Positions 22,775-53,936 of a stretch of DNA of 57,961 bases are shown here, in pieces. Both the position numbers and the translations under genes were made by a program. The stretch's first letter is position 1. Each line of letters starts with the position of its first letter. Source of the stretch: a virus (lineage: Duplodnaviria > Caudoviricetes); the IMG/VR virus record IMGVR_UViG_3300031463_000009, positions 1-57,961 of that record. One strand, 5' to 3'. Below the pieces are notes generated by a model. The model worked only from the letters and a program-made list of their open reading frames with translations. It was not told where the DNA came from and searched no databases.

Positions 22775-25700
22775 ATGATTGACCCTATTGAGCATAGCCG
22801 AGACATTGCCAAATCGGTTGCAGATGCGTTTATGCAAGTATTCCCTATAGAAGGGAGTAAGCATATTCTGCGACTAAACGGTGTTGATGTTGAGCCTAAT
22901 GAGTATATGTCAGACTACCCAGCCCAACTTAAGGCTAAGTTAAGCCATAGAAGTCTGTTTCAGAGGGTGGTGGGGGATTTTTCTCTCATAGATAAAGCCA
23001 CAGGAAAGGTATTGGATCGGAAGAAAATGACTTTGGCACATCTTCCTGCATTGACAGACAGATACTCATATATTGTAGGTGGCACTGAATATACTGTTCC
23101 TATACAGCTTAGGTTGAAACCTGGGGTTTATACAGAGCGTAAAGAGGATGGAACCATTCAAGCCAAACTTAATTTGGTTAACCTAAGAGGTAAAAGTGCC
23201 GCAGTTGTTTTTGACCCTGCTACGAGGATATTTAGTTTCAACTACGGGTCTTCAGAACTTCCGCTATTCCCGATATTAGAGCATCTTGGAGTTTCTGGTC
23301 AAGAATTAAAATCATTAGTTGGAGAAGATGTTTATAACGCAAACATAAAAGACAGAGAAAAAGCGGTTGCTCGTTTTGCTAGGGCGCTAGGAGTAAGCCC
23401 TGAGGATATTAGTAAAGTATTCAACGAGACCGTGCTTGATCCAAATGTTTCTAAATTGACGCTTGGACGATCTTTCTCTAAGGTAGATGGAAATGTGTTA
23501 TTGCTTGCCACAAAAAAAGTTATTGGTGTTTCTAAAGGGATGGCTAAGGAAGATGATAAAAATTCTCTTGCATTCAAAACCCCGATAGATACAGCCGATT
23601 TTTTGAAAGAAAGGATACTAAAATCAAAACAGGTTTTACATAACAGAACTCTAGCAAGGCTCGACAGGCTAAATGATATATCTAAGATTGTTATATCTGA
23701 ACATTTTTCTCATCCTATTCTTACTTTTTTTACCTCCAGCCAAGTTGTTGGACTTCCTTCTCAGGTAAATCCTGTAGATATTGCTTCGTCTGGTTCTAAG
23801 GTTACAGTTCTGGGAGAAGGTGGTATCTCATCTCTCGATCAGATTGTAGAGAAACAACAACAATTGGACCCATCTACTTTTGGTTTTTTAGACCCCATAA
23901 TGACTCCAGACAATTCAAAAGCCGGGCTTGTTGTTCATATGGCTGTTGGAGCCAAAAAGAAAGGAGACTCTTTAGTCTCCAAAGTGTGGGATATTAAAAA
24001 TAAGCAATACACTTATATAACACCTGAGAAAGCTTTTGAGTCTTTCGTGGTTCTTCCAGATCAGGTGAAAATCGTGGATGGCAAGATTAGTTTTGTTTCT
24101 CCAAGAGTAAAAGCAATTCATAAGCATGAAATAGTAGATATACCAGCCAGCAAGGTAGATTATGTGTTTGATGTACCAGAGGCACTTTTCGACATAGCTT
24201 CTTTGGGTATACCTTTTTTAGCTCATGATTCTGGCAATAGAGCTCTTCTTGCTACTAAACATATTGAGCAGAGTTTGCCTCTTGTCGATGCTGATCATCC
24301 ATTAGTTGATGTTGAAGTGGCGAAAGGGCATGGTTGGTCTGACGTTGGAAGAGCCGCGTTCCCGATGGTTGAATCACCTATTGACGGCGTTGTGTCCAAA
24401 GTAACCAAAGACCAAATAGTAATAAAATCTGGAAAGAACGTGGCTAAAGTTCCTCTTCTTAATTATTTCCCTCTTGAAGACGGTGGTTATGCCCATTCTA
24501 CCCCAGTAGTCAAACCAGGCGACAAGGTTAAAAAGGGAGATATTGTTAGCGAAACAAATTTTACAGATAAACAAGGAAAACTCAAGATAGGTAAGAATCT
24601 TTTAGTTGCTTATGTTCCATATAAAGGATTAAATTTTGAAGACGGAATAGTAGTATCTGAAAGTGCAGCTAAAAAGCTAACATCACGCCATTTGTATAGA
24701 GAGAATGTTTATACTTCAAAAGGAATAGCTGTATCCAAAAATAAGCTACTCGCTTTGTATCCTGGGATTTTTAATACTAATCAGTTGAATAAGTTGGATT
24801 CTGATGGAGTAATTAAGGAAGGTGAATATATTGATGAAGGGGATCCTTTAATAGCTGTACTCCAGCATGACATACAACCAAAACCTGAAGAACTTCTCTT
24901 AGCAAGGTTCTCAAAGAAATTGTACCAACCTTGGAAAAATAAGACTGTTACTTGGACTAATCCATTTAGGGGTAGAGTTGTAAGAGTTGTAAAAGGCAAA
25001 AATATAGATGTCTACATAGAAACAGAGGAACCTGCTCAGGTCGGGGACAAGCTGAGTACTAGAGCCGCTCCTAAGGGAATAATAACCTACATAGTCCCAG
25101 ATGCAGAGATGCCAAAAACAGAATCAGGAAAGACCGTAGATGTAATTGTGAACCCGTTGGGGATACCTTCAAGACTCAATTTTGGTCAAGTATTAGAGGC
25201 AGCTGCTGGAAAGATAGCAGAAAAGACAGGAAAACCTAAGATGGTTGCTCAATTTAAGAAGGGCGACCTTGAAGAACTAGAGAAGGAACTTAAAGAGCAT
25301 GGAATTTCGGACAAAGAATATCTAATAGACCCAACGACAGGGGTCAAAACAGAGCATCCTGTTTTGGTAGGTCCTGAATATATTTTGAAACTTAAACACA
25401 CTGCCTTGACGAAAGCCACCGCTCGTGGAGGTGGGGTAGGAGAAAAGTATTCTTATGATTCCATTCCTTTAGGTGGAGAAGGAGCCCAATCTTTAGGTCA
25501 CCTTGGTCTTTATGCGATGCTTGCTCATGGGGCATTGAAGAACCTGTATGAAATGCAGACATATAAAAGTTCGGCGAATCCTGAGTTTTGGTTCGCTTTG
25601 CAATCTGGAGCCCCTCTTCCTCCTCCATCTGTGCCGGTCCCCTATAAAAAATTTGTCGACTATTTGCGCACGCTCGGAGTAGATGTAAAGAAAACAGGAA

Positions 25701-28700
25701 ATGTGCTGCAGCTATACCCACTGTATGACGAAGATATTCTCAAGCTTAGTTCAGGTGAAATAGATCCAACCAAAATAATTAGAGGTAAAGATTTAAGAGA
25801 AGAACCTGGCGGTTTGTTTGATCCTGTTAAAACAGGTGGTATTACAGGGACTAAATATTCTCATATTACACTTAATGCATCGTTTCCTAATCCTATTTAC
25901 AAGGATGCTTTTGCCATTCTGTTTGGTATGACAAGGACTCAATATGATGAGCTAATACAGGGTAAGTTAGGTGTTACTGACGATGGCAAATTATCACCAG
26001 ATGGAAAATACCGACTTGATAAAGCCTTTAAGAAGTTGCTATCCACGCTTGATGTGAAAAAGGAACTGGCAGAATCAGAGGAAAGAATAAAGAACACATC
26101 AGGCATTGAGCGGGCAAAACTGGCCAGAAAAATTAGAATACTTCGTCATCTTGCTGAGTTGAAAAGAAACCCCGAAGATGTTTACATGACTAAGCATGTG
26201 TTGGTTATCCCTCCTTATTTTAGGCCTATAACTGAGACTAAGGATGGAAATATTTCTGTCAATGACCTGAATGGGCTGTATAGAAACATCGGTATTCTAA
26301 ATCAACAGCTTAAACAAGCAAAGGAGCTAACAGATAAAGAACAAGCAGACGCTTATGCGTCAGTTTATTCAGCCCTTGAGGCGTTACAGATGAATGGGCT
26401 TTCAGTTGGGTCTAAGCAATACAGGTCCGTTCTCGATATTATAGCTGGGCCACAACCTAAATTAGGATATTTCCAACAGTCACTTTTGAAGCGGAGGCAG
26501 GATCTAAGTGCAAGGGCTGTCATTGTTGTTCCTAAAGAAAGTATGCCTCTTGATGAAGTAGGACTTCCTGAGAAAATGGCTTGGACAATTTTTGGTCCTT
26601 TGGTTATAAGAAGATTGACCAGAGCCGGTTATACCACCCTACAGGCTACTGAGATGGTAAAAAACAAAGTTCCGGCCGCAAGGACAGCCCTAGAAAGAGA
26701 AATGAAAGAGCGACCTGTATTACTAAAGAGAGACCCGGTATTGCATCGTTATAATGTGATGGCTTTTTACCCCAAGCTTGTTTCTGGAGAAGCTATACAC
26801 ATCCACCCATTGACCTTACAGGGTTTCGGCGGAGACCTTGATGGAGATGCATTTTCTGTGTTTACCCCTGTAACAGAAAATGCTGTAAAAGAGCTACAGA
26901 ACTTATTACCATCTAACAACCTGTTTTCTACTACTTCAGGAAAGGCTTTGTACGCCCCAAGACACGAAGGGTTGATGGGGCTATATCTTTTATCCCGCGT
27001 GGAGAAAAAATCGGATAAGAAATTCGACTCGGTACAAGATTTGATGGCTGCTGTAAATGAGAAAAAAGTTTCCCTTAATGAGGAAGTAACTGTCGCAGGG
27101 AAAAGGACTACTGCCGGAAGAATACTTATTCAAGAGGCACTGCCAAAAGGCTATGAAGTAGATGTTTTAACAGGTAAAAATCTTGCCAAACTACTTTCGG
27201 ACATTGGGCATAAACATCCTAATGATTATCCATCGGTAGTTGAAAAGCTAAGAGTTCTTGGTAATGACTATGCGTTTAGATACGGCGTCAGCATGGGTAT
27301 AGAAGATGTAAAAGTGCCTAAATCCTTACAGGAATATACTAAACGGGTCTGGGACAAAGCTGAGCGTATGGCAGCCAATACTAGAGATCAGGACAAGAAA
27401 ACTAAGATTTTATTAGCTGCGAAAGAGTCCATAGAGAAAAAAGCATTGGAAACTCTTCCAAAAGATTCATTCCTTTACAAAATGGTTGAATCTGGAGCAA
27501 GAGGTAACCCTGGGCAACTTTTGCAAATGACTGTCGGACCTGGTTTGGTAGAACAACACGGGAAATTGATTACTGTTCCTATAAAATCTGGTTATGGCGC
27601 TGGGATGGATGTGACCGATTATTTTACATCGATGCTTGGGGCAAGATCCGGTCTGGTTTCTGGAAAAGCTCGTGAAATTAGAGACCCGGGCTGGCTATCA
27701 AAACAAATGTTGGCGTCGGTATTAGACGTTAGAGTGACCTCCGACGACTGTGGGGTTAAAAAGGGCACTTATATGAGTGTTGATGACGACCAAATTCTAG
27801 GAAGGTATTTGCCTAACGATGTGACCATAAATGGTAAAGTATATCGTAGGAATACATTAGTTACTCCGGAACTTTTGTCCGAAGCGAAGAAGGCTAAGAT
27901 CAAAGAATTAGAGGTTAGATCCCCTTTGAATTGTCAGGCTCCTCATGGAGTTTGTAAGAAATGTATGGGATTAAACCCAAGTGGAAAAGAACATAGGCTA
28001 GGCGAATTTGTTGGGGTATCTGCTGCCCATGCCATAGGTGAACCGAGTTCACAGCTTGCTCTTTCTGGGTGGCATACCGGAGGCGCTGTAGGTGCGCAAA
28101 TATCTCCTTTTAATAGACTACGTCAACTTTTGGCATTCCCAGAGAATTTGTCAGGAGAATCAGTATTAGCCCAGACTTTTGGAAAAGTTGAAGCCATACA
28201 CAAAAAGCCTTTAGGGACAGAGGTAGTAATAAATAATGTTACTCATTGGGTTCCTTCTGACAAGAAAGTAACAGTCTCTGTAGGCGACAAGGTTACTAAG
28301 GGTCAGCCAATTTCTACAGGACTATTTAATCCGAGAAAACATATGGAGCTCGTCGGGGTTGAAGGAACTAGAAATAAGTTGGTTGATGAAATATACAATT
28401 TACTTCGGACACAAACTCCTATTAGAAGAACTAATGTTGAACTTATAGTAAAAGCCTTGACTAATGTAGCAGAAGTAGACGATAGAGGTGGTCACCCACA
28501 TTGGTTAGAAGGAGACCTTGTGCCATTGAATCATGCTAATTGGTTCAACAAATCTGGTAGATTTGCAGAGATTTCTAAAGGAAATGCTGTCGGTGGGAAA
28601 CTATTGGAAAACTACAAAGGATTCAAGAAAGGCACAATTGTGGACAGGAGTATGCTGCCTCATCTTCCTGACCAGGTTAAAGTAGAGTTGCCTCCAGTCA

Positions 28701-28918
28701 AATATAAACCGGTGTTGAAGGGAATTAATGTTCTACCTCTGGAAGTTGGAAGCGACTGGATGACAAAGCTTAATTTCGAGCGCATTAAAACAAGTGTTAT
28801 TGAAGCGGCTATAACTGGGGGGAAATCTAAACTTCAGTCGTTTAATCCAATCCCAGATTTGGTGTATGGCACGGACTTTGCTGACGTTTCTCAAATAATG
28901 GACAAGAAGACAAAATAA
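22775..28918 (+). CDS. rpoBC: Fused beta-beta' DNA-directed RNA polymerase (multisubunit type)
   Basis: Beta motifs: 'FFTSSQ..NP..LGEGG', 'GKNLLVAYVPYKGLNFEDGIVVSE', 'GDKL....PKG', 'NPLGIPSRLNFGQVLE', 'KLKH'. Beta' motifs: 'GLFDP', 'VIPPYFRP', 'LLKRRQDLSARAVI', 'KRDPVLHR', catalytic 'GGDLDGD', 'SGARG', 'AIGEP..QL...HTGG'. Single uninterrupted ORF. Confidence 0.97.
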   Translation: MIDPIEHSRDIAKSVADAFMQVFPIEGSKHILRLNGVDVEPNEYMSDYPAQLKAKLSHRSLFQRVVGDFSLIDKATGKVLDRKKMTLAHLPALTDRYSYIVGGTEYTVPIQLRLKPGVYTERKEDGTIQAKLNLVNLRGKSAAVVFDPATRIFSFNYGSSELPLFPILEHLGVSGQELKSLVGEDVYNANIKDREKAVARFARALGVSPEDISKVFNETVLDPNVSKLTLGRSFSKVDGNVLLLATKKVIGVSKGMAKEDDKNSLAFKTPIDTADFLKERILKSKQVLHNRTLARLDRLNDISKIVISEHFSHPILTFFTSSQVVGLPSQVNPVDIASSGSKVTVLGEGGISSLDQIVEKQQQLDPSTFGFLDPIMTPDNSKAGLVVHMAVGAKKKGDSLVSKVWDIKNKQYTYITPEKAFESFVVLPDQVKIVDGKISFVSPRVKAIHKHEIVDIPASKVDYVFDVPEALFDIASLGIPFLAHDSGNRALLATKHIEQSLPLVDADHPLVDVEVAKGHGWSDVGRAAFPMVESPIDGVVSKVTKDQIVIKSGKNVAKVPLLNYFPLEDGGYAHSTPVVKPGDKVKKGDIVSETNFTDKQGKLKIGKNLLVAYVPYKGLNFEDGIVVSESAAKKLTSRHLYRENVYTSKGIAVSKNKLLALYPGIFNTNQLNKLDSDGVIKEGEYIDEGDPLIAVLQHDIQPKPEELLLARFSKKLYQPWKNKTVTWTNPFRGRVVRVVKGKNIDVYIETEEPAQVGDKLSTRAAPKGIITYIVPDAEMPKTESGKTVDVIVNPLGIPSRLNFGQVLEAAAGKIAEKTGKPKMVAQFKKGDLEELEKELKEHGISDKEYLIDPTTGVKTEHPVLVGPEYILKLKHTALTKATARGGGVGEKYSYDSIPLGGEGAQSLGHLGLYAMLAHGALKNLYEMQTYKSSANPEFWFALQSGAPLPPPSVPVPYKKFVDYLRTLGVDVKKTGNVLQLYPLYDEDILKLSSGEIDPTKIIRGKDLREEPGGLFDPVKTGGITGTKYSHITLNASFPNPIYKDAFAILFGMTRTQYDELIQGKLGVTDDGKLSPDGKYRLDKAFKKLLSTLDVKKELAESEERIKNTSGIERAKLARKIRILRHLAELKRNPEDVYMTKHVLVIPPYFRPITETKDGNISVNDLNGLYRNIGILNQQLKQAKELTDKEQADAYASVYSALEALQMNGLSVGSKQYRSVLDIIAGPQPKLGYFQQSLLKRRQDLSARAVIVVPKESMPLDEVGLPEKMAWTIFGPLVIRRLTRAGYTTLQATEMVKNKVPAARTALEREMKERPVLLKRDPVLHRYNVMAFYPKLVSGEAIHIHPLTLQGFGGDLDGDAFSVFTPVTENAVKELQNLLPSNNLFSTTSGKALYAPRHEGLMGLYLLSRVEKKSDKKFDSVQDLMAAVNEKKVSLNEEVTVAGKRTTAGRILIQEALPKGYEVDVLTGKNLAKLLSDIGHKHPNDYPSVVEKLRVLGNDYAFRYGVSMGIEDVKVPKSLQEYTKRVWDKAERMAANTRDQDKKTKILLAAKESIEKKALETLPKDSFLYKMVESGARGNPGQLLQMTVGPGLVEQHGKLITVPIKSGYGAGMDVTDYFTSMLGARSGLVSGKAREIRDPGWLSKQMLASVLDVRVTSDDCGVKKGTYMSVDDDQILGRYLPNDVTINGKVYRRNTLVTPELLSEAKKAKIKELEVRSPLNCQAPHGVCKKCMGLNPSGKEHRLGEFVGVSAAHAIGEPSSQLALSGWHTGGAVGAQISPFNRLRQLLAFPENLSGESVLAQTFGKVEAIHKKPLGTEVVINNVTHWVPSDKKVTVSVGDKVTKGQPISTGLFNPRKHMELVGVEGTRNKLVDEIYNLLRTQTPIRRTNVELIVKALTNVAEVDDRGGHPHWLEGDLVPLNHANWFNKSGRFAEISKGNAVGGKLLENYKGFKKGTIVDRSMLPHLPDQVKVELPPVKYKPVLKGINVLPLEVGSDWMTKLNFERIKTSVIEAAITGGKSKLQSFNPIPDLVYGTDFADVSQIMDKKTK

Positions 28919-29768: not shown

Positions 29769-30560
29769 ATGAACACTTTGCAAAAATTGGCAGACGAGGC
29801 TCAGGGAATCGATCCTTGGGCGTCCCCAGTATATCAAGCAGCTGTAAATAGAGCACTTGCGGATTTGGACAGAAAAGCACGTTTGGCATTTAGGAAAGTT
29901 AAAAAGCCGGTTGTTGATACAGAGAAAGAAGCACCATCACCTCTCTTGGCTTCCATGACAGGACACCCAGGTGCTCCATGGACTCCTTCATGGGCAAATC
30001 CACCAAAACAACAAGCGACAAAACAAGAAACACCAACATCAACGCCGACAGCGTCGGCTCTTTTGTCTGCTATATCAAGACATCCTGTCGCTGCTGGATT
30101 AGGAGCAGCCGGCACACTTGCTGGAGTTGGAACCCTTGCAGCGCTTTTAGCAAGACGAAGGGCAGAGAGATCATTCGCTGAGGCACTTGCACAAAGAGCT
30201 CCAGCAGCATTCGGAGGTTTAGGCAGCCTTGCTCCCCTTGGTGGTGGTTTACTCGCTGGCTACTTATTAGGACGTAGGAGCCAGAAACAGGCTTCTGCTT
30301 TGCCAACAGTTGAAGAATTGATTAATGAATTAAGGAATGGTCTTGAAAAATTGGGGTTCGATATGGTTAGTCCTCTTAGCTCATTGCCGGCAGTTAAACC
30401 CCAGATTGCCCCTATCTTTCCTGGGGCTATACCTCAAGCAGTCGCTAAACCTGGGGTGAACCCACTTGGACCACCAGGTCCTTCTGGTAGAGCTTTGTAT
30501 AGAGTTAGAACTCCTACGGCTGGTGAGTTGGCTGGTTACTCTATGCTTAGAAACAAATAG
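29769..30560 (+). CDS. Putative virion precursor protein (Gly/Ala-rich TM-like segments, K-x-A/G linkers)
   Basis: Starts MNTLQKLA; shares 'HPVA.GLGAAG.L.G.G.L.ALLARRRA' with next gene; linker 'KQASA...GLEKLG'. Confidence 0.65.
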   Translation: MNTLQKLADEAQGIDPWASPVYQAAVNRALADLDRKARLAFRKVKKPVVDTEKEAPSPLLASMTGHPGAPWTPSWANPPKQQATKQETPTSTPTASALLSAISRHPVAAGLGAAGTLAGVGTLAALLARRRAERSFAEALAQRAPAAFGGLGSLAPLGGGLLAGYLLGRRSQKQASALPTVEELINELRNGLEKLGFDMVSPLSSLPAVKPQIAPIFPGAIPQAVAKPGVNPLGPPGPSGRALYRVRTPTAGELAGYSMLRNK

Positions 30561-30685: not shown

Positions 30686-32368
30686 ATGAACACTTTGAGA
30701 AAACTGGCCGGTTGGAGAGAATCCTACAATAAAGCAATGAATGTAATTGGCTATCCCGGAGAAGCTCTTGCTGGAATTATGGAGAAAAAGTTCAATCCTG
30801 ACGCATATTATGCTGGAAAAACTCCACCGTCTCCACCCCCTAGACAGAAAATACCGAAAGAGCCACAATATAGTACTCGTGGTCCTGTAGATGAGATTGT
30901 ACACACGTACACTAGTGCTGGATACCCAGCCCCCGAAACAGTGATACTTCCTGGTGTTCAAGCCACATTTCAGACCGAAGCAGGAAGGGAAGCTGTTGAT
31001 AAAGCTATAGCAGAGGACGAACTGAAAGCAAGGATGGAAGAATACAGGCAAATGATGCGTGGGCAGTCGGATGTTAAACCCAGACTTCCGTCGGCTACTA
31101 CTAGTCAACTAATTGACGAACTGCTTGGAAGAGCTAAAGAGAATATCAAAGCCAAAGCTTATAGTGCTAAGGCGGATCTTGGGAAAGTCTATCAAGAACG
31201 GGCTAAACCGTCAGCTGAAGCTGCTTTATCTGCTGTTAAAGGACATCCTGTCGCTACTGGATTGGGAGCCGCCGGTGCACTTGGGGGACTTGGAGCTCTC
31301 ATAGCCCTTTTGGCAAGACGAAGAGCACAGAAGGCTATGGCTACATCACTTGCAGCAAATGCCCGACCTGCATTAATGGAGGGATTGGCTAAATATGGTC
31401 CTCTTGCTCGTAGGTTTGGTCCTTGGTTGGGCGCTGGTTTAGTAGCTGGGTATTTACTGAACAGGGGTAAAAGCGCATCTGCCCCACAGACATTCCAAGA
31501 ATGGGCTGATGGGATAAGGAGCAGCATCGAAAAAGTTGGAGATGATGGGGATCTGCAAGGAGCATATCAACAGAATGTCAGGCCACATCTTGAATCTGCT
31601 ACCAGATCCGCGCTGCGGGCATATCAGCAAAATGTCAAACCTGTTGTTGGGGCAGCTGCTGGTACACCTGTAGGGCGTGCACTGGCAAATCAAGCCAATT
31701 TGATTGGGAACACTTTTAGGCAAGGTGTTCAGAATGTGCAGAGAGGGTATCAGCAAAATGTCAAACCAGTTGTTGAAGCTGCTGCTGGTACACCATTAGG
31801 ACGTGGAATAGCAGACCAAGTCAACTTAGTTGGAAACTATTGGAGGAACGCCGGCAATAAGGCTTATCAGAATGTTGTTAAACCTTTAGCTGGAGAAATA
31901 GCGTCTACTGTTAGACAACATCCTGTTGGTACGATGCTTGCACCTGGGGCTGTAATTGGGACTAGTTTAGGGGCTGGTTTAGGGGCTGGTTTAGGTTCTT
32001 TGCTGAGAAATAAAAAACAATCATCGGCACCACAGACATTCCAAGAATGGGCCGCTGGAGTGAGGGAAGGAATTGAAAAAGTCGGATTCGGTTGGGGAGA
32101 TGTTAGACAAGGTTTATCACGGGCAGGCGGTTTTGTTGCTGATCAAGGACGCTTAATCGGCAATTACTGGGGAAATGTTGGTAGAAGGGCGAACGAATAT
32201 GTCAGGTCTAATATTATAGACCCTACTCCCCAGATGCAGCCTCAAACCCCTGCTCAACCCCAAGCTAAAAAACCGTCTGGGGGTGGAGGCTTGGGGACGT
32301 TCTTCTTAGGCACTCCACTAAAGTCTCCTGCAAGAGAGCAACTTAAGGGGGTAGATTTTGGTGACTAA
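30686..32368 (+). CDS. Putative virion polyprotein with internal repeats
   Basis: Starts MNTLRKLA; two 'K.(A/S)SAPQTFQEWA.G.R..IEKVG' linkers; YQQNVKP repeats; three Gly/Ala hydrophobic stretches. Confidence 0.65.
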   Translation: MNTLRKLAGWRESYNKAMNVIGYPGEALAGIMEKKFNPDAYYAGKTPPSPPPRQKIPKEPQYSTRGPVDEIVHTYTSAGYPAPETVILPGVQATFQTEAGREAVDKAIAEDELKARMEEYRQMMRGQSDVKPRLPSATTSQLIDELLGRAKENIKAKAYSAKADLGKVYQERAKPSAEAALSAVKGHPVATGLGAAGALGGLGALIALLARRRAQKAMATSLAANARPALMEGLAKYGPLARRFGPWLGAGLVAGYLLNRGKSASAPQTFQEWADGIRSSIEKVGDDGDLQGAYQQNVRPHLESATRSALRAYQQNVKPVVGAAAGTPVGRALANQANLIGNTFRQGVQNVQRGYQQNVKPVVEAAAGTPLGRGIADQVNLVGNYWRNAGNKAYQNVVKPLAGEIASTVRQHPVGTMLAPGAVIGTSLGAGLGAGLGSLLRNKKQSSAPQTFQEWAAGVREGIEKVGFGWGDVRQGLSRAGGFVADQGRLIGNYWGNVGRRANEYVRSNIIDPTPQMQPQTPAQPQAKKPSGGGGLGTFFLGTPLKSPAREQLKGVDFGD

Positions 32369-32426
32369 TGTGCCAATCTTGGCAATACTAAATAATTAGT
32401 ATAAATTTACTTTAGGAGGTAAAAAC

Positions 32427-32867
32427 ATGGAAGACTATGAACTGTTAAAAACAGCAGCTGCATTAGATGCAGCCAAGAACAATGATGTCAACACTTTAGC
32501 AGAGCTATTCGTCATGGATCTGGATGACGCTACTAAAGAGGCATTGGCGAATGCTCTTGTGAAGGAGGCTGACTGGAACCTCTTTACAGGCGACGCTGGA
32601 GAGGCCCTTGCTCGTCTGTACGAGAGAATATTCCACCCAGAAGCCTACAGGGCTGGTCAGATCACGCCGGAAGATATTGAGGGTATAAAGAACAGAAATA
32701 CCATTGCACAACAGCGTGAGTTGATCAAAAAACTCAAATTAGGTGTTGGTGGAGCAACTGGGGCAGCTGGATTGGCTGGTCTTTTGGCAGCAGCGTTGGC
32801 ACTTCGTGGGCGTGCTCGCGGAGGCAGCAAACTCGTTTCCTTGCTAAGAAAGGTTCGTCCTCGGTAA
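32427..32867 (+). CDS. Leader-cargo precursor, array member 1
   Basis: 48-aa acidic leader ending VKEA; variable middle; hydrophobic plus basic tail ending LRKVRPR. Confidence 0.8.
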   Translation: MEDYELLKTAAALDAAKNNDVNTLAELFVMDLDDATKEALANALVKEADWNLFTGDAGEALARLYERIFHPEAYRAGQITPEDIEGIKNRNTIAQQRELIKKLKLGVGGATGAAGLAGLLAAALALRGRARGGSKLVSLLRKVRPR

Positions 32868-32950
32868 GTCTCTGGTAAACGCTTAAAGCCCTGTTTGACA
32901 ATCGTCAGATTTGTCAATCGGGTCTTGTAGACTAGATGAAGGAGGATAAC

Positions 32951-33322
32951 ATGGAAGACGATTATGAACTGTTAAAAACAGCAGCAGCATTGAACGCTGT
33001 AGAGAATGATGATGTCAACACTTTAGCAGAACTATTCGTCATGGAACTGGATAACGATACTAAAGTGGCACTGGCTAATGCTCTTGTAAAAGAGGCTGAA
33101 GGAGAAATAGGAAGAGATGAGAAAATTCCACCTTGGCTAGGTTCGGGTTTGCGATACGAAAGAATCAAAAAAATTCTTAGCGGACCTGCTGGATGGGGTG
33201 GAGCAGCTGGGTTGGCTTCTATACCGGGCATTTTGGCACTAGCATTAGCGCTTCGCAGACGTGGTGGTGCTAAAGGAGCTAACAAGCTCGTTTCTATGCT
33301 AAGAAAGGTTCGTCCTCGGTAA
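32951..33322 (+). CDS. Leader-cargo precursor, array member 2
   Basis: ATG at 32951 after GGAGG; same leader; same C-terminal LRKVRPR. Confidence 0.8.
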   Translation: MEDDYELLKTAAALNAVENDDVNTLAELFVMELDNDTKVALANALVKEAEGEIGRDEKIPPWLGSGLRYERIKKILSGPAGWGGAAGLASIPGILALALALRRRGGAKGANKLVSMLRKVRPR

Positions 33323-33418
33323 GCGGGGATATTGGTAAGAGCTTGGAGACCTGTTTTTGATACCCACCTTGCTGTCATCAGGTTTTAGACGCTGTGTAGC
33401 TAGCATAGTGAGGTCGAC

Positions 33419-33709
33419 ATGAAAGACGACTATGAACTGTTGAAAACAGCAGCAGCGTTAGATGCAGCCAAAAACAATGATGTTAACACTTTAGCAGAGC
33501 TATTCGTCATGGATCTGGATGACGCTACTAAAGAGGCATTGGCGAATGCTCTTGAGAAAGAGGCTTCATCTAAGTTACTAGCAAGACTTGCAAGAAGAAC
33601 TGCTAGTAGAAGTGCCGGTCTAAGGACTGCATTGGCTTCTCTTCTATTGGCTAGGGGTAGAGGTAAGTCTAACCAGATCAAGACTTTATTACGATTTTTG
33701 AGGAAGTAA
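33419..33709 (+). CDS. Leader-cargo precursor, array member 3 (cationic cargo)
   Basis: Same leader ending EKEA, then a 47-aa Arg/Leu-rich peptide. Confidence 0.8.
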   Translation: MKDDYELLKTAAALDAAKNNDVNTLAELFVMDLDDATKEALANALEKEASSKLLARLARRTASRSAGLRTALASLLLARGRGKSNQIKTLLRFLRK

Positions 33710-33710
33710 C

Positions 33711-34196
33711 TTGAAAGAGTATTTTAAGCTGGCGGATGATAATAATGATCATAAAGTAATTGATACTCTTAACGAGTATTTTTTCCGCCCTGGCATCATG
33801 AGATTAGTCACTGAGATAATAAGAAAGAAGAGTGTTCCACAAACTGTGAGAACCCCTGAATTGCTTCCAGTAGTTCTTCTTCTTGCAGCTATTGGAAAAA
33901 GCGCTGAAAAGAAAGCAAGTGAGCCATATTTTCCTCCTCCTCCGGTTGTGCAGCCTCCGCCTCCTCCTAGTTTTTATAATGCCCAGCAATTTCTTAAGGA
34001 AGAACAGAAGAGTAATAAATCTAGGTGGCTTATTCCAGTTGTAGCCGCTGGATTATTTCTTTACTTACTATCTCAGCAGAGACCTATTTCTGAAATAAGG
34101 GAGTTCATAGGTAGGAATAGGCCTTTACTAACTATGATTCCTGTGCTAAGCTATTTTTTAGGTAAGAAACCTGAGGAAGAAAATGCGACTAAATGA
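33711..34196 (+). CDS. Putative membrane-associated virion protein (Pro-rich linker)
   Basis: 'FKLA' and 'EKKAS' sites, poly-Pro, TM-like 'WLIPVVAAGLFLYLL'. Confidence 0.65.
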   Translation: MKEYFKLADDNNDHKVIDTLNEYFFRPGIMRLVTEIIRKKSVPQTVRTPELLPVVLLLAAIGKSAEKKASEPYFPPPPVVQPPPPPSFYNAQQFLKEEQKSNKSRWLIPVVAAGLFLYLLSQQRPISEIREFIGRNRPLLTMIPVLSYFLGKKPEEENATK

Positions 34197-34449
34197 GGAA
34201 GATCTAATAAAACTGGCACAGATTTCAGAACTATTAGAATCTGATGGGACGAACGTCCCTTTGTTTATAGGATCTCTTCCTGATAGAGTAATAGAACAAT
34301 TCTTGAGTATAGATCAAAATGACTTGGAAAAGACTGCGGCCTTTCTTTCACTTCGTGGACTTGGCAGACTTTTTGGAGGCTTAGGACGTGCGGTTAGAAG
34401 AACGAGTAGATTTTTAAAACTAAGACGACCTTTTCCACGATTCCTTTAA
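34183..34449 (+). CDS. Acidic leader + cationic amphipathic peptide precursor (divergent array member)
   Basis: Leader resembles array leader (LIKLA...LFIGSLPD...EKTA), then AFLSLRGLGRLFGGLGRAVRRTSRFLKLRRPFPRFL. Confidence 0.75.
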   Translation: MRLNEEDLIKLAQISELLESDGTNVPLFIGSLPDRVIEQFLSIDQNDLEKTAAFLSLRGLGRLFGGLGRAVRRTSRFLKLRRPFPRFL

Positions 34450-34543: not shown

Positions 34544-35191
34544 ATGACTTGGATTAAAGGAATCGTTATTTCTGTTGTGTCTGTGCTTGTCTGTTCTGCT
34601 GGTTGGTTGTTGCTTATTTTATTTTCTAATGTGCCAAACTTACATGTCAAAGATGGTTACTTCGTGGACCAGAAATACCATGTCTATCAGGTGTTTGAAG
34701 ATGGAGTTATTTGTCTGTATGTTCCAAAAAGAAACGGGTATGTGTGTAAGGGTGTTCCACCAGAATTCTTTAGTGCACTAAATACTATATTTGATGCTGA
34801 TCTGTTCAAGGCTACTGAAATGAAGGCTGGGAGCATAGAGAAAGTAATAGAGGAAGCAAGTGCTGTGCATGGTGTAGATCCAAAGCTCGCAAAGGCGGTT
34901 GCAAAGGTAGAATCCAATTATCGTGCTGATGCTACATCACCTAAAGGATGCAAGGGGGTGATGCAGATTTGCACTTATACTGGTGAATCTGATCTTTATA
35001 ACCCGGTTATTAATGTTTATGTCGGTGTTCAAAAGTTGAAAGCGTTGATTGATGAGTTCGGGGATGAGGAACTCGCATTAGCAGCTTACAATTCAGGCCC
35101 AACTGCTGTGCGTAGATATGGTGGTGTCCCTCCATACAAGGAAACTCGTGAGTATATCAAAAAAGTGCTAAAGATTAAAAATGAAATTTAA
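34544..35191 (+). CDS. Lytic transglycosylase (SLT domain) with N-terminal membrane anchor
   Basis: 'VDPKL.KAVAKVESNY...A.SPKG.KGVMQ', 'ALAAYNSG', 'GGVPPYKETREY'. Confidence 0.92.
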   Translation: MTWIKGIVISVVSVLVCSAGWLLLILFSNVPNLHVKDGYFVDQKYHVYQVFEDGVICLYVPKRNGYVCKGVPPEFFSALNTIFDADLFKATEMKAGSIEKVIEEASAVHGVDPKLAKAVAKVESNYRADATSPKGCKGVMQICTYTGESDLYNPVINVYVGVQKLKALIDEFGDEELALAAYNSGPTAVRRYGGVPPYKETREYIKKVLKIKNEI

Positions 35192-35372: not shown

Positions 35373-37058
35373 ATGATGAATTTTTACAAGACAAGGGTCT
35401 TAACTAAAACTGCTACAGTCAAAGTTCCTTTAGATCCTTCTATATGGGTTGACTTTATATCTCAATATGTTGCAAAGGAACATCCAGAACTTGTTGGTAA
35501 TAAAATAGCTGTTGAGTTTGACAAAGCCGATCCTGAAAAAGGATATGCTTTTGGAACTGTTAAAGTTTCTTCTTCTCAGGATACAACTAAAACTGTGGCT
35601 CTTCCGATAGTAATTGAAAATTTTAAGATATACCCATTGGATCTTATGTTAAAAGAAGGGGATCTAGCCCCTTATAATGAGGATGAGGTTTCGAGAATTT
35701 TGTTCTCTCCAAGCTTTGTAAACAAACTTGTTCCTCGTCCTAAAAATATGCCTGATGCCCCTATAGTTGTTCCTTTTGCTAGTTTGAATAAAGGGGCTTC
35801 TAAAACGGCCTTGTTTGAAGACTTGGGACCACTGACAGATGACAAAACCAAAAAGGAGTTCTTAAAGGAACTAAAAAATCATCCCGATTTACTGAAAGTA
35901 GCTGGTATAAAAGAGTTTTTCGAGAGTAAATATTCTCCTATGTCTAAAACACCGTTAGCTTACCTTTCAGACGGAAAGAAAGGATATACACTTGCTCAGA
36001 ATATATTCGACGGCTCATTCGAAGTGATAGAGAAAGACGCATCTGAAGCGGAAGTAGTCCAGTTTACTGAAGGAGAAGCATCTGAGGTCCCGCCTCCTCT
36101 TAATACTCCTGAATCAGGTCCTTGTCTTGTAAAGTGTGGCAATTCTATCATATCTGCTTACAGAATAAGTAAGGTGACTGACTTCGAACGGGTCTATGAA
36201 AGACCTATGTATGTTCTTCCTGAAGGGCTTTATTCTTTTTCAAAAGTGGCTGCTTCCAAATTTGACGAGGCAGTGGATGTATTCGGCCCTCCTGAGGGTT
36301 TTGGAATGTTCCTTTTCAATTCTAAAATAGCAAGCGTTCCTATGACCATCAATAGGGTAGGAGATGATTACTTTGCTAACGCTGGAACAGTCCCAATGCG
36401 TCTGATTTTTGTTCCAGAGCTTGCTTATCCTGTAAAATTAGCAAGCGAACTATTCATTCCTTATGACGCAGAATTTATACCTATGCGGAAACAGATAACC
36501 CTAGATGAGATGACCGGTCTTCCTGAAGAATCTTACCAGTATCATCTGATAAAACAGGGTAATAGCTTTTATCTTGGTGGAGACGCCAGAAACTTGTCTA
36601 ATCTATCTGCAAGAGATGCTTTCTTGCATCTAATATCACTTGGATGTTCTGACAAGCTGGCATCAAAAATCATTAAAGAAGCTTCATCAAATCCTAATGG
36701 GAAAACTTTCTGGTCGAATTCTCCTGAGTTTGCTTGCGCTGACCTGCAGAAAACCGCAGACCTTATAGATGAGCTTAAGGAATCTTTATTTGACGAGAGC
36801 GAAGATCTTAAGGCAACCCCTGCGGTGGATAAAGTCCTGGCTCTTTCTGTTTTAACTCCAGAGAACCTAGGGGTTTTCTTGAATCATGCCGATGAACTTG
36901 AAGATTCAATTTCTTATTTATCTAAGCTGTTACTTTTATGTAGGCTTGGTTTGAGAGATGTTCCAGAGTCGAGTGTAAAAACCTCATTATCTTCTTTGGC
37001 CAAACTTAAGAATATATTGGGGTTAATACAAGAATCTATACCAAAGGAAGGGGAATGA
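35373..37058 (+). CDS. Large hypothetical protein, probable virion/prohead component (many K-x-A sites)
   Basis: GGAGG RBS before ATG 35373; TKTA, SKTA, LKVA, VKLA, KEAS, QKTA sites. Confidence 0.6.
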   Translation: MMNFYKTRVLTKTATVKVPLDPSIWVDFISQYVAKEHPELVGNKIAVEFDKADPEKGYAFGTVKVSSSQDTTKTVALPIVIENFKIYPLDLMLKEGDLAPYNEDEVSRILFSPSFVNKLVPRPKNMPDAPIVVPFASLNKGASKTALFEDLGPLTDDKTKKEFLKELKNHPDLLKVAGIKEFFESKYSPMSKTPLAYLSDGKKGYTLAQNIFDGSFEVIEKDASEAEVVQFTEGEASEVPPPLNTPESGPCLVKCGNSIISAYRISKVTDFERVYERPMYVLPEGLYSFSKVAASKFDEAVDVFGPPEGFGMFLFNSKIASVPMTINRVGDDYFANAGTVPMRLIFVPELAYPVKLASELFIPYDAEFIPMRKQITLDEMTGLPEESYQYHLIKQGNSFYLGGDARNLSNLSARDAFLHLISLGCSDKLASKIIKEASSNPNGKTFWSNSPEFACADLQKTADLIDELKESLFDESEDLKATPAVDKVLALSVLTPENLGVFLNHADELEDSISYLSKLLLLCRLGLRDVPESSVKTSLSSLAKLKNILGLIQESIPKEGE

Positions 37059-47959: not shown

Positions 47960-49384
47960 ATGATAAAAAGAATTTTTACAGGTGGTCAGAAACCGGTAGC
48001 AGGATGGGGGAGTAGACAAGGATTAGTTCTTTCCCCTCAGATAGGTCTTGTTAAATTCGGAGCTTCTGGGTCTGCTGTAGAACTTGGATATAGGCCAAAA
48101 GAGGTTCATGAGTTTTTACAGACATATAAGGTGACCCCTGGGCATTTTGCTCTTAGGATAGTCCCTATGGGAGCTTCTGAGGTTTGGGGACCTAATGATA
48201 GAGGAGACATCTGGCCTGAATCTGGCCTCCATCCGACAGACGAACAAGGAAGAGAACTTACGGATGTTTGGTGGGGATACAAATCTTTTGAAAAGAATGC
48301 CCACGTGTATCGGCATCATTTTAATTTTGATCCGAGTTTTTCCATTGGAAGAATCGTTAAAGCGTTCTGGGACCCAGATATGCACCGCATTGAGTTGGTT
48401 GCTGAAGTAAATTCTGAACAAGCTCCAGACATTAAAGAAGCCGCCGAAAGAGGTGATGTAATTGAAGGTTCTATGGGAGCCAAAATCCCAGAAGGCGATG
48501 TATGTTCTGTGTGCTATAACAGAGCTCTCAACAGAAGCATGTATTGTACCGACCTTCGTGAGCATATGGGAGAATTAACAAAAGAAGGTGCTTATATAGG
48601 GGCGATTAACGAGAAGCCAAAGTTTTTTGATTACTCTATCGTAACAAAGCCAGCAGCCAAAGAGAGTGGCACTGTAGAATTTCTAAAAGCAGCATCAGCT
48701 AAACTATCCAGTGCAGACCTTGCTTACGAAATAAAATATGATCCTGATAAAGTGGCTATGGAGCAGATGATCTATGAATATAGTCCAAAAGCCCACAGGA
48801 TTATGTCCAGGGAGAAAGAAATCCCAACAAACTATTTACTCAAGTTAGGAAGTTCTGTTCCCCTCCCTGTAAGTGTTTCAACTTTGTATTCTCTGGGGAT
48901 TCTTTTGAATCCTCTTGAGTTCCAGACATTGGTTTTGTCTGGGACTAATACTAAACTGGCTGAGGCGTATGCTTCTAATAGATTAGTGTTTCCACCAAGC
49001 AAATACTCTGAGCCCTTTACTATTGACCTATCATTAGTCGACAAAGAATTAGTGCAACAATTAGTAAAGTTTGCAGACTATAGAAGTGGCTTTGAGCCTT
49101 ATTTTCTGGCACGCTGGAGAGGTATTATACCTCCTGATATTCCACAGGTATTTAGAGTATTTACTGGTGATGCTCTTCTCAATAAGATTGGTAGTATTTA
49201 CAATGGATATAGAGAGGAAGCCTTGAAAAATTTAGGCAAGCTCATTGATTATTATAAAACGAGTCCGTCGACCGTAACGCCGTTCGGAATTACTTTGGAA
49301 AAATCGGCGTGCTGGTTGGGGGGTCTTGAAAGCCCGGTTACAAGACTTTATTTTAGGGCTTTCTGCAATTATTCATGGAAATAA
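47960..49384 (+). CDS. Prohead maturation protease (HK97/herpes-fold serine protease) with Zn insert and C-terminal extension
   Basis: 'VYRHH....SIGRI' (His), 'EGSMG' (Ser), 'CSVC...C..L..H' insert, 'FFDYSIVTKPA'; upstream of capsid gene. Confidence 0.8.
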   Translation: MIKRIFTGGQKPVAGWGSRQGLVLSPQIGLVKFGASGSAVELGYRPKEVHEFLQTYKVTPGHFALRIVPMGASEVWGPNDRGDIWPESGLHPTDEQGRELTDVWWGYKSFEKNAHVYRHHFNFDPSFSIGRIVKAFWDPDMHRIELVAEVNSEQAPDIKEAAERGDVIEGSMGAKIPEGDVCSVCYNRALNRSMYCTDLREHMGELTKEGAYIGAINEKPKFFDYSIVTKPAAKESGTVEFLKAASAKLSSADLAYEIKYDPDKVAMEQMIYEYSPKAHRIMSREKEIPTNYLLKLGSSVPLPVSVSTLYSLGILLNPLEFQTLVLSGTNTKLAEAYASNRLVFPPSKYSEPFTIDLSLVDKELVQQLVKFADYRSGFEPYFLARWRGIIPPDIPQVFRVFTGDALLNKIGSIYNGYREEALKNLGKLIDYYKTSPSTVTPFGITLEKSACWLGGLESPVTRLYFRAFCNYSWK

Positions 49385-49809: not shown

Positions 49810-50205
49810 ATGGTGTGGGATAAAGTAGATGCGCTTGATCCTATTGTAAGAATCCTCAGTGGATTCAATGCCACTGATGCTTCTATTACTAAAGAGGCCC
49901 AGAAACAGTCCGAAGTTACCGAACAGGCCGACGGACTTTTGGCTGCTTTAGGGATTTCTGATCTTGCAGACGAGAGTGTTGATTCTAGCCTAAAAGGTGG
50001 GAAGAAAGAGGCGGAGTCGCCTAATCCTGAGGCGGAACTGGCGAATAGACTTGGGGTTATTATGGCTGACTCCTGTGCTAACAGACTGGATGAGCTTCTG
50101 TCTGGAGAATTTGAAGCAAAGGAAGCTGAAAGTTCAAGCTATGATAAGACCCAGCTTTTCGACGACGCTCTCGCTTTGGTCTTGGCCAGACGTGGTTTGA
50201 TCTAA
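49810..50205 (+). CDS. Acidic scaffold-like protein
   Basis: Three KEA sites; 'LGVIMADS' helix. Confidence 0.55.
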   Translation: MVWDKVDALDPIVRILSGFNATDASITKEAQKQSEVTEQADGLLAALGISDLADESVDSSLKGGKKEAESPNPEAELANRLGVIMADSCANRLDELLSGEFEAKEAESSSYDKTQLFDDALALVLARRGLI

Positions 50206-50592: not shown

Positions 50593-51198
50593 ATGCCGAC
50601 ATTTAAGGAGATATTTGATCCTGAGCTTGACAAAGAAGCAGCGGGTCCTAGTTTCTGGTTTTGGCGTCTTCTTGGTGAAGGACTGAAGAAAGTCCCATTA
50701 CTCAAAGGAGTAGGTGAACAATCCTTAGTGAGAGCTGTACGTGGTGCACTTACTCCAAAAGGCATAATACCTTATGAACTTCACGTTCCTAGTGTTCTCG
50801 CAGAAGATACAGCAGTTAAAAATTTGTTTAACTCTCTTTCTCGTCAAGGCAAGACTAGACTTCTTGGTACAATGTTTGAAAGAGGTGGTGAGCCTGCACT
50901 TAAGTCCATAGCTACTGAATATAAGCTCGGTAAAAAACACCAAGAAAGCATGTTAGGCCTACTTAAAGAGAGAGCTAAATCTAGTAACATACCGGTCCCT
51001 GGTGTTTTTAATCCTGCGAAAGAAAAAGCCGAACAAGAAGCTGCAGAACTCGCAAAAAATGAGACTAAAAAAGGTTGGGGGGAGAAAATTCCTTGGTGGG
51101 CTGGTGGATTGGCCGGCTATGCCGCTCACGATTTAATTTCGGGTGGCGGAGGAGGAGGGGTAGGAAACGGTAAACAAAGGACGGTGATTATAGGATGA
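50593..51198 (+). CDS. Putative virion precursor (leader ending DKEA)
   Basis: 'MPTFKEIFDPELDKEA'; C-terminal 'WWAGGLAGYAA'. Confidence 0.65.
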   Translation: MPTFKEIFDPELDKEAAGPSFWFWRLLGEGLKKVPLLKGVGEQSLVRAVRGALTPKGIIPYELHVPSVLAEDTAVKNLFNSLSRQGKTRLLGTMFERGGEPALKSIATEYKLGKKHQESMLGLLKERAKSSNIPVPGVFNPAKEKAEQEAAELAKNETKKGWGEKIPWWAGGLAGYAAHDLISGGGGGGVGNGKQRTVIIG

Positions 51199-52832: not shown

Positions 52833-53936
52833 ATGACTTATCCGTATACAACCCTTGAAGTCAATACTGGGTTTTGGGACAATTTTACTGGTAATCTTAT
52901 TTGGGCTAAAGAGGCTCAGCAGGTTGCTGGATCTATTGTCACCAATATCGTTCGTGAGACCAGTTTTGCGGAAAAAATATTGGATTTCAAACCTGCGATT
53001 GGAAACGAGGTTGTTCCATATCCTAATTCCAAAGAACTGGCGATTGTGGCGTGGTTAGAGAAAGGGGCGAGAGCAGGTGTTTATCCTTTCTATCATGCTG
53101 GCAGCGGAGTTGGAGAAGCTAAACTGTTTACTACAGACAAATTCTTCGTTCCGTTCATTACTCTTAAAACCACTGAGATGAACTTCACCAGAGCAGAGCT
53201 TGCGGCATATCCGAAACCGATAACATCTATCTTTCAGGATGACATCGGAACTTATTTATCAACCATTCTTGACTGGTATTTCCTAAAGACAGCAGAGGCG
53301 GCTGTGACAGCGTCTGGTCAAGATGTGGCGGTCGGTTCAAGCACCGATCTTTCTTTGCCTGATGCTATAGATAAGACCGATATTACTCGGCTGCAGAATT
53401 TGTCTACAGATGGCAAAGACCTCAAGACCATCCTTATTTGCTTTAAGGATTGGAATAGGTTGTTTGAACTTCCTCATACTACTTTGTCTACCGACCTTAT
53501 CGCGCAGGTAGAAAAGAAGGGTGCTGATGCTTTCCAAGGATTCGGGGACTGCACCTGGATCGTTTCACGGAAGGAGCGCCTGTTAAGGCCTGGTATTATT
53601 TATGGGTTTGTCAATGATGAGAATATGAGGAGAATCGCTGGAGCGTCTGAAGACAGGACCTTCTTGGGTATTGCTAGGACACTTGGAAATACCGTGGTGT
53701 TGCTTGACAATACTATGGGTCGTCTGAGAATAGCTGGCGAGCGTTGGGTTGCGTTTGCTATTGGCAATATAACCAGTGTAGGCAGAATAGCGTTGTTTGA
53801 TGCTGATATATCTGAGCCTTACGGTGATGGGCTTACTGGAGAAGCAGCGCTTGACGCTTACAAAGAAGTTCCTGCTTGGACAACTGTTTGGCCTTCTGAC
53901 CTTTCTGCATCTAATGTGCAGGGAGGTATTGCATAA
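52833..53936 (+). CDS. Major capsid protein (probable HK97 fold)
   Basis: 367 aa, strong AAGGAGGT RBS, follows protease/scaffold/decoration genes, followed by a strong terminator. Confidence 0.75.
   Translation: MTYPYTTLEVNTGFWDNFTGNLIWAKEAQQVAGSIVTNIVRETSFAEKILDFKPAIGNEVVPYPNSKELAIVAWLEKGARAGVYPFYHAGSGVGEAKLFTTDKFFVPFITLKTTEMNFTRAELAAYPKPITSIFQDDIGTYLSTILDWYFLKTAEAAVTASGQDVAVGSSTDLSLPDAIDKTDITRLQNLSTDGKDLKTILICFKDWNRLFELPHTTLSTDLIAQVEKKGADAFQGFGDCTWIVSRKERLLRPGIIYGFVNDENMRRIAGASEDRTFLGIARTLGNTVVLLDNTMGRLRIAGERWVAFAIGNITSVGRIALFDADISEPYGDGLTGEAALDAYKEVPAWTTVWPSDLSASNVQGGIA

Follow-up and report, generated by a model that had tools for sequence, protein, structure and literature searches.

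What do three adjacent small genes encode when their products begin almost identically and all end in basic sequence? The question is raised by m1, m2, and m3, which lie in a genome fragment of 57,961 bp from an uncultured virus (record IMGVR_UViG_3300031463_000009; hereafter the window, meaning the whole stretch of DNA analysed), with a completeness of ~32% according to CheckV and with replication genes and a large terminase among its genes. By analogy with known phages, the best reading is that m1–m3 would be propeptide-addressed head-internal proteins, as a variant of a T4-like principle. We give somewhat better than even chances to their being processed head-internal proteins, analogous to the T4 internal proteins that carry a capsid-targeting sequence (CTS).

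All three genes are on the plus strand, with a Shine-Dalgarno site before each. The m1 gene (32427..32867) encodes 146 amino acids (aa) and has its leader at residues 1–48 (nt 32427–32570), while m2 (32951..33322; 123 aa) and m3 (33419..33709; 96 aa) have theirs at residues 1–49. In each case, the leader ends in Lys-Glu-Ala (KEA), this being at residues 46–48 in m1, nt 33089–33097 in m2, and nt 33557–33565 in m3; m1 also has a KEA at residues 37–39 and a KTA at residues 8–10. The likely start of m2 is at 32951 (GGAGG with a 5-nt spacer), with an alternative at 32936 that would give 128 aa. Antisense open reading frames across the array (e.g., 32962–33378) were dismissed as by-products of Ala-rich codons, the sense frames being those with ribosome-binding sites and with a ratio of nonsynonymous to synonymous substitution rates (dN/dS) below 1. 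The initial annotation, made from the sequence without database searches, had described a near-identical acidic leader of 48–49 aa in the three adjacent genes, and this was borne out by a comparison of m3 with the window's own DNA, which matched m1 at an E-value of 2.1e-24 (87% identity over residues 3–55) and m2 at 7.5e-20 (74% identity). Likewise, the conservation claimed for the leader at the DNA level and its abrupt end were both recovered, in that a 135-nt core is 95% identical between m1 and m3 (7 mismatches), 86% between m1 and m2, and 84% between m2 and m3, and alignability stops right after KEA. The 5' untranslated regions of m1–m3 could not be aligned. An AlphaFold2 model of m1 from a 6-sequence alignment predicts, at low confidence, that the 48-aa leader may form a three-helix unit; its predicted local distance difference test score (pLDDT) of 44.6 is too poor for a fold search.

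Beyond the leader, m1 continues with a helical middle of 56 aa and then a C-module made up of a Gly/Ala-rich hydrophobic helix (residues 105–126), RGRARGG, and KLVSLLRKVRPR. In m2, a hypervariable linker of ~25 aa precedes a C-module like that of m1, both having the order of Gly/Ala-rich helix, Arg/Gly cluster, and KLVS.LRKVRPR. The leader of m3 is directly joined to its own version of the C-module, which is 47 aa long, diverged, non-hydrophobic, and strongly basic, and has the 13 Lys/Arg and no Asp/Glu that had been counted earlier. The reported reconvergence of the m1 and m2 tails was recovered, with a local score at z = 16.5 that was reached by none of 2000 composition-preserving shuffles. 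Moreover, the part of m3 described earlier as cargo runs collinearly with the tail of m1 up to the C-terminus (z = 3.8, reached by 5 of 2000 shuffles), and a MAFFT alignment agrees, with the C-terminal 45–50 aa alignable across m1, m2, and m3; the score of m3 against the m2 tail was reached by 92 of 2000 shuffles. Between leader and C-module, the linker is thus 0 aa in m3, ~25 aa in m2, and ~52 aa in m1, and the net charge after the leader across the three genes is +8, +10, and +13. As judged from these alignments, the family is an N-module followed by a linker of variable length and then a basic C-module. Since the C-modules of m1–m3 are homologous, the earlier notion of one leader with different cargo is not supported, and it is the linker that varies.

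Comparison with one related phage (loci L004, L005, and L008; ~91–95% nucleotide identity in the flanking genes), in which the order m1, m2, m3, g161, g88, a lytic transglycosylase (SLT) gene, and g565 is kept, led to the same picture. Here, with ratios that rest on small counts, dN/dS in m1 is 0.21 for the leader, 0.43 for the middle, and 0.10 for the C-module; in m2 it is 0.46 for the leader and 0.12 for the C-module, with 10 of 29 aa identical and 52% nucleotide identity in the linker; and in m3, which has no linker, it is 0.36 for the leader and 0.27 for the C-module. In a third strain, represented by contigs of run X4 only, the m2 leader is followed by a different sequence again. Together, these comparisons show purifying selection on the family, with the C-module held most tightly and the linker left free to change. 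The swappable peptides of the initial annotation are thus not supported, as the C-module is common to m1–m3 and is their most constrained part (dN/dS of 0.10–0.27 against 0.21–0.46 for the leaders).

The leaders themselves do not follow their genes. The window's m3 leader differs from the m1 leader at 7 of 135 nt and from that of its own ortholog at 33 of 135, and in the relative the m2 and m3 leaders have 3 differences in the first 95 nt and 19 in the last 40. In each of the four sequencing runs examined, contigs are broken at these repeats. These patterns indicate that the leaders are homogenised by gene conversion among paralogs, which fits a single shared partner for all of them. As a separate observation, one contig from run X1 (depth 10.1, side 54) joins 32813 to 33270, putting the m1 tail in frame with the m2 tail and skipping 456 nt; recombination between the tails may have given a two-gene or strain variant here, or the repeat may have misled the assembly.

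Independent evidence bearing on cleavage comes from where else KEA occurs. This motif had been named in the initial annotation before any motif test was made, and in this phage and two relatives we found a specific excess of it among head-morphogenesis proteins, with expected counts taken from per-protein shuffles. In the window, the head module (9 proteins, 1953 aa), a group that was drawn after the KEA list had been seen, has 6 copies against 0.92 expected, with 6 reached in 0 of 2000 shuffles, and the other 42 proteins (11,999 aa) have 5 against 4.03 (746 of 2000). In Salmonella phage Arash, for which the gene groups were set in the script before output, gp218–gp226 have 11 against 1.43 (0 of 2000 shuffles) and the tail genes gp227–gp251 have 2 against 1.91. 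In fact, four of the 11 Arash head-module sites read LVKEA (in the capsid protein, twice in gp223, and in gp225), this being the pentapeptide that also ends the m1 and m2 leaders (NALVKEA). The third phage is a distant, uncultured 113-kb relative (G003), the head module of which includes a protein matching a head maturation protease family (PHROG 18299, 2.9e-11) as well as a major head protein and a sheath. For KEA alone, its head module has 6 against 2.35 (21 of 1000 shuffles), with 16 against 11.80 (135 of 1000) in the rest. When the motif is widened to K[ET]A, which makes the test partly circular because the widening was made after KTA had been seen in G003, the counts are 15 against 3.86 for the G003 head module (0 of 1000) and 28 against 22.8 for the rest of G003, 7 against 1.54 for the window head module (2 of 2000) and 7 against 6.99 for the other 42 proteins, and 6 against 1.79 for the block around the array (15 of 2000), the EKTA of g88 included. 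The clean tests are those of KEA in Arash and of KEA alone in G003, the latter at only 21 of 1000.

Within the window's head module, the positions of KEA match where the cleavage sites of other phages lie, namely at residues 26–28 of the capsid protein, three times in a scaffold-like protein, at residue 14 of g201, and both inside and at the end of the conserved domain of a putative protease. The latter (47960..49384, plus strand; 474 aa), with KEA at residue 159 and KES at residue 234 at the end of its conserved domain, is the candidate prohead (head-maturation) protease. It has the conserved motifs HH.N.DP and SMG...DVCS.C and matches the G003 protease (BLASTP, 1e-34) and Arash gp222 (1.2e-35), of which gp222 matches the PHROG 18299 head maturation protease at 2.1e-06. 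His and Ser residues are invariant in the three-way alignment, and K-E-S or K-T-A follows the conserved domain in two of the three homologs. Separately, Arash gp222 (L022, 5738–7213) is annotated only as a structural protein, and the text of the Arash paper does not contain the word protease (PMC10585845).

The major capsid protein (52833..53936, plus strand; 367 aa) matches that of G003 at 2e-13 and has AKEA at residues 25–28 (KEA at nt 52908–52916) right before the core that is conserved with relatives. In all four lineage members (the window, Arash, G003, and G002), K-x-A is aligned at one place just before this core, as AKEA, VKEA, VKTA, and EKLA. Between the protease and capsid genes is an acidic scaffold-like protein (49810..50205, plus strand; 131 aa, net charge −13) with KEA at residues 28, 66, and 104, at an exact spacing of 38 aa. 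Arash gp223, for its part, has a net charge of −27 and a repeated AVELVKEAS unit, and these two look like scaffold proteins that would be cut into pieces. The basic head-module protein g201 (50593..51198, plus strand; 201 aa) starts with MPTFKEIFDPELDKEA and has KEA at residues 14–16 after an acidic N-terminus, a short element that we take to be similar in style to the 10-aa CTS of T4. Furthermore, Gly-rich hydrophobic stretches occur in other small basic proteins of the head module (g170, g201, and g219), so that mature m1–m3 would not be unusual there.

The prohead proteases of T4 and of the giant phages recognise a short motif common to capsid, scaffold, and internal proteins and cleave after its Glu (PMC5694885; PMC9026906), and by this analogy K-E-A would be a maturation cleavage site, and hence the place where we infer that the leaders are cut; the packaging of m1–m3 in the head would follow the same analogy. 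The KEA/K-x-A signature of the head module, together with the protease homolog in the window, makes leader removal by a prohead protease the best reading. The modular system proposed in the initial annotation is thus retained for its leader removal, albeit on motif and homology evidence, and given up for its swappable cargo. As we picture it, each precursor would consist of an acidic and helical 48-aa N-terminal propeptide, a linker of variable length, and a conserved basic C-module, the latter predicted as two helices, the first Gly/Ala-rich and weakly hydrophobic and the second cationic and amphipathic, with an Arg/Gly cluster between them. The shared propeptide would bring m1–m3 into the assembling prohead, where the head-maturation protease (candidate at 47960–49384) would cut at or beside K-E-A, as a signature also placed at the N-terminus of the capsid protein and in scaffold-like proteins. 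Basic products of ~98, 74, and 47 aa would then stay with the DNA in the head, probably to be ejected with it and afterward bind DNA or insert into the host membrane.

A number of points weigh against this, besides the late drawing of the window's head-module group and the circularity of the widened motif. The residue before K-E varies among six leaders (V, V, E, E, V, and T), the m2 leader of the relative ends in KED instead of KEA, and the N-terminal KTA of g565 was ruled out as a conserved site, not being kept in distant homologs. When the leader was compared with head-module proteins, the best scores were reached by 19 of 1000 shuffles in the window and 16 of 1000 in Arash, before correction for 9 and 18 tests, and are not significant, and an m3 query of the window's DNA found no match beyond m1 and m2 at E ≤ 10, placing the leader in no further window protein. 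The window's protease homolog has no match to PHROG 18299, its best PHROG being a function-unassigned family at 6.5e-4, and no solved structure was matched to it by sequence. Pfam S77 and S78 found nothing in the window or in the records of five relatives; of these searches, that with S77 is uninformative, since none of the control genomes passed its cut-off and one gave a match below it, and S78 was matched in 4 of 14 control genomes. In the Arash mass-spectrometry table, the coverage of the capsid protein is 86.64%, which is compatible with a lost N-terminus and not diagnostic (PMC10585845). Lastly, the m1–m3 family was not found in Arash or Vibrio phage D69, and the array is missing at this position in relatives with 33–39% identity in RNA polymerase (RNAP) that keep g565 and g284.

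Some of this evidence can be read differently, with m1–m3 in the head or core but uncleaved. In scaffold-type helices, K-E-A would then have a structural or docking role, and the leader would be a small scaffold-binding domain that stays on, which we consider quite unlikely. Such an arrangement takes the motif enrichment as a signature of the head module and not of proteolysis, suits the absence of a protease of characterised family in the Pfam S77/S78 and PDB searches, and agrees with a leader that is predicted, by the low-confidence model, as a three-helix unit of 48 aa, far longer than the 10-aa tag described for T4 (PMC9026906). It sits poorly, however, with the capsid K-x-A lying exactly at the edge of the conserved core, 25–30 aa from the N-terminus, with K-E-S or K-T-A after the protease domain in two of three homologs, and with the even spacing of KEA in the acidic scaffold-like protein. 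Sites at a core edge, at a domain end, and at even intervals are typical of maturation cleavage as described in T4 and SPN3US (PMC5694885).

The gene g88 (34183..34449, plus strand; 88 aa) lies two genes downstream of m3. Its acidic 52-aa N-terminal part has 11 Asp/Glu and ends in EKTA (KTA at residues 50–52, nt 34330–34338), a boundary that fits the wider K-[E/T]-A signature, and the 36-aa tail that follows has 10 Lys/Arg and no Asp/Glu and is cationic and amphipathic, with a hydrophobic moment of 0.83. These features stand as initially annotated, but the idea of a divergent copy of the leader does not, as its score was reached by 183 of 2000 shuffles. Membership of g88 in the family was rejected on this ground, along with a tail score reached by 746 of 2000 and an hhalign comparison that gave a probability of 0.35% at an E-value of 0.17 and no significant similarity. 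As read from its sequence, g88 has the acid-then-base layout of m1–m3 without demonstrable kinship to them, and this layout makes it probably a precursor of the same sort.

Downstream of g88 is the SLT-domain lytic transglycosylase (34544..35191, plus strand; 215 aa; PF01464, 1.8e-20), which has a strongly hydrophobic N-terminal signal-anchor and lies 0.8–2.1 kb from the array genes. Its proximity suggests an alternative in which m1–m3 would be uncleaved small membrane-associated proteins in the infected cell that form a cassette for lysis or envelope remodelling with this membrane-anchored enzyme; m1 and m2 would be holin-like, antiholin-like, or releasable-anchor proteins, and the tails of m3 and g88 disruptin-like cationic amphipathic helices. 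In support, eight consecutive genes from g263 to that for SLT have hydrophobic or amphipathic segments and adjoin this murein hydrolase, the m1 and m2 helices have Kyte-Doolittle values of 1.64 and 1.83 with basic tails after them, the hydrophobic moment of the g88 tail is 0.83, and a precedent is available in phiKT gp28, described as a 56-aa cationic amphipathic lysis peptide (bioRxiv 10.1101/515445). Against it, an amidase-type endolysin is encoded separately at 18125–18592 (phrog_822, 3.8e-29), the hydrophobicity of the m1 and m2 helices is no more than marginal, and m3 (which lacks a hydrophobic helix) and g88 offer no membrane-spanning candidate. The borderline m1 and m2 helices score ~+2.4 and +2.7 kcal/mol, compared with −2.0 for the SLT anchor, and the basic residues on both flanks make neither orientation easy. 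Moreover, a lysis cassette leaves the head-protein signature at the leader end unexplained, and the conserved neighbours g565 and g284 sit by hub-like and terminase genes in relatives. Overall, we regard this lysis role as unlikely. The Gp8 hydrolase of Arash was ruled out as an analog of SLT, being a 1165-aa protein in a different setting.

Far more remote, and in our judgement very improbable, is the possibility that m1–m3 are antimicrobial-peptide or bacteriocin-like precursors that are secreted and become active extracellularly. Such precursors would look like m1–m3 in having an acidic pro-piece ahead of a cationic peptide, but the N-terminus is acidic without a hydrophobic core and the boundary is K-E-A and not double-glycine, meaning that there is neither a signal peptide nor an export leader. 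In addition, no transporter or modification genes are adjacent, and the genes are located in the structural region of a lytic phage.

With processed head-internal proteins as the preferred reading, how widespread is the family? It had been expected that a leader profile would uncover arrays elsewhere, and this was not so, as an exhaustive profile search of 1.84 billion representatives gave five matches at E ≤ 0.001, four of them from the m1–m3 family itself, including the relative's m2 called short (P0006). The fifth (P0007), a Gly/Asp-repeat protein matched in 6 weak stretches, was rejected as spurious. A word-based homolog search gave 5 of 67 candidates at E ≤ 0.01, all from this phage or one relative, and no match was confirmed in an IMG/VR pattern scan with m1, obtained from blastn of 30000–36000 against phages, or usable in the Protein Atlas for m1 or g565. 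PHROG had no match to m1–m3 at E ≤ 0.001, and we took as noise the only matches in Pfam at E ≤ 0.01 (m1 to PF00291 PALP, 16.3 bits against a cut-off of 35) and NCBIfam at E ≤ 0.05 (m2 to NF011175, 14.6 bits against a cut-off of 301). A match of m3 to PDC-S70 (PADLOC, 1.9e-05, 22.9 bits), a PIN-nuclease defence candidate (PMC12988326), was set aside as compositional because the matched tail has no Asp/Glu, and thus no PIN acidic catalytic residues, and because the model also matches in 3 of 14 control genomes; m1 and m2 had no match. Positional analogs of the array in L009–L011 had no similar architecture. By these searches, the m1–m3 family occurs in this phage and its close strains and nowhere else.

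Among known systems, the internal proteins IPI, IPII, IPIII, and Alt of T4, with a CTS that is cut off by the prohead protease gp21, bear the closest comparison, in that several small basic proteins are placed under one N-terminal propeptide and the genes are non-core and lineage-specific. The propeptide of m1–m3 likewise ends at the presumed head-maturation motif of the phage, with Glu before the presumed cut. The T4 cleavage motif is Leu/Ile-x-Glu, and it is K-E-A here. The propeptides of IPII and IPIII are identical and their mature proteins basic (PMC9026906), and the m1 and m3 leaders are nearly identical as well. Differently from T4, where the propeptide is 10–20 aa long and the mature parts are unrelated, m1–m3 have an acidic leader of 48 aa that is probably folded, and their mature parts are homologous to each other. 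The candidate protease is also not of the gp21-type Pfam S77, and m1–m3 are related to no PHROG family, the T4 set being compared by its description.

In the giant phages SPN3US and phiKZ, which also package a multisubunit RNAP, the processed ejection and inner-body proteins have long N-terminal propeptides and include tandem paralogs with constant N-termini and diverging remainders, as in gp53 and gp54 of SPN3US, where the N-terminus within long propeptides is identical (PMC5694885). Further likenesses are several candidate sites within the propeptide, a hydrophobic helix in a mature ejection protein (SPN3US gp47, with a transmembrane helix), and a virion RNAP nearby (PMC5694885). In contrast, m1–m3 are much smaller (96–146 aa) and without detectable homology, the motif is K-E-A instead of A/S/G-x-E, with the residue two before Glu in the six leaders being V, V, E, E, V, and T, and the RNAP is one fused β-β' chain. 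As for phiKT gp28, the C-terminal parts of m3 and g88 are similar to this disruptin in size, charge, and amphipathicity, as compared by description; yet it is a 56-aa peptide that acts in lysis, and its abstract gives no mention of a pro-piece (bioRxiv 10.1101/515445).

The array is downstream of this RNAP gene (22775..28918, plus strand), whose 2047-aa product is of the fused β-β' multisubunit type and clearly shows the Rpb2 and Rpb1 domains of Pfam. Among cultured phages, those closest in RNAP are Vibrio phages D69, D181, and D148, at 28% identity and 98% coverage, and Salmonella phage Arash, at 31% identity. The homologous region of Arash and D69 is split into at least two genes, in places by homing endonucleases, where that of the window is one chain. 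In virion mass spectrometry of Arash, the RNAP homolog gave the most spectra (PMC10585845), and the large phage studied here probably packages its RNAP. Separately, an octamer, TAATTAGT, occurs in 9 copies against 3.97 expected (9 being reached in 1 of 100 shuffles), at 22678, 22708, 32393, 45192–45201, and others, with copies in the intergenic regions upstream of RNAP, m1, and the gene at 45276. A role as promoter or operator of the phage is possible for it, and σ70-type promoters in the window are not above shuffles (24 vs 21.9).

Between RNAP and m1 lies a second tandem paralog pair, g263 (29769..30560, plus strand), with KEA at residue 53, and g560 (30686..32368, plus strand), which are related at a BLASTP E-value of 2e-15. 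They have in common an N-terminus, MNTL.KLA, and a segment of HPVA, a Gly/Ala-rich helix, and RRR that is like the m1 and m2 tails; g560 has internal repeats, the content of which varies between the window and the relative strain, and two Gly/Ala-rich helices with basic residues after each. A homolog search with g263 matched g263 itself and the relative only. The gene after m3, g161 (33711..34196, plus strand), has a 161-aa product that contains a Pro-rich linker and several hydrophobic segments, all short, and 151 of the 161 residues are kept in the relative. Farther downstream, g565 (35373..37058, plus strand) adjoins RNAP in distant relatives too, at 23–27% identity, and, like g284, has hub-like and terminase genes as neighbours in relatives. 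A word search with g565 found the close relative only, with no match by sequence in the PDB and none in Arash or D69 at E ≤ 1, no relative was confirmed in an IMG/VR pattern scan with the protein, and its AlphaFold2 model on 5 sequences had a pLDDT of 37.8, too poor for a fold search.

Elsewhere in the window, a radical-SAM/QueE-like protein (39869–40750, minus strand; E ~1e-6) and a glycosyltransferase (6661–7611, minus strand; phrog_7162, 9.1e-41) hint at DNA base modification. A 279-aa protein (43624–44463, minus strand) is a widespread repeat protein, of which three stretches match PHROG 7964 (3.9e-116); it also matches several further function-unassigned PHROGs. A 581-aa protein (56026–57771) with a Laminin_G_3/concanavalin-like domain (6.9e-10) is probably a receptor-binding or fibre protein.

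Going beyond the packaging of processed m1–m3, a broader and rather doubtful proposal would join a protease family and an address into one system. An uncharacterised family of head-maturation proteases would recognise Lys-Glu/Thr-Ala, and a portable 48-aa acidic address would load into the capsid the pro-forms of tiny cationic peptides (47, 74, and 98 aa, with one of 36 aa from g88) that act on membranes or bind DNA. These would be activated only in the head and delivered with the DNA and virion RNAP, there to open or perturb the host envelope or to hold the genome. In this broader proposal, the family would extend to Arash, uncultured relatives, and the Vibrio D69-type phages, the last by RNAP kinship only. 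Should processing in the head turn out not to occur, what is left is an ordinary lineage-specific paralog family. If it does occur, the address, which gene conversion keeps identical between paralogs, would be a natural tag for loading cargo that could be put on other proteins, and K-E/T-A (often LVKEA) would be the head-maturation cleavage signature of an orphan group of roughly 180-kb phages, one that includes a cultured member, Salmonella phage Arash, for which virion mass-spectrometry data already exist. The basic products would be candidate phage-delivered cationic peptides with an activity that is masked until capsid maturation. Moreover, m1–m3 would then represent a second and independent case of the T4 principle in which one removable address loads several small basic proteins, the address here being long, acidic, and kept uniform by gene conversion.

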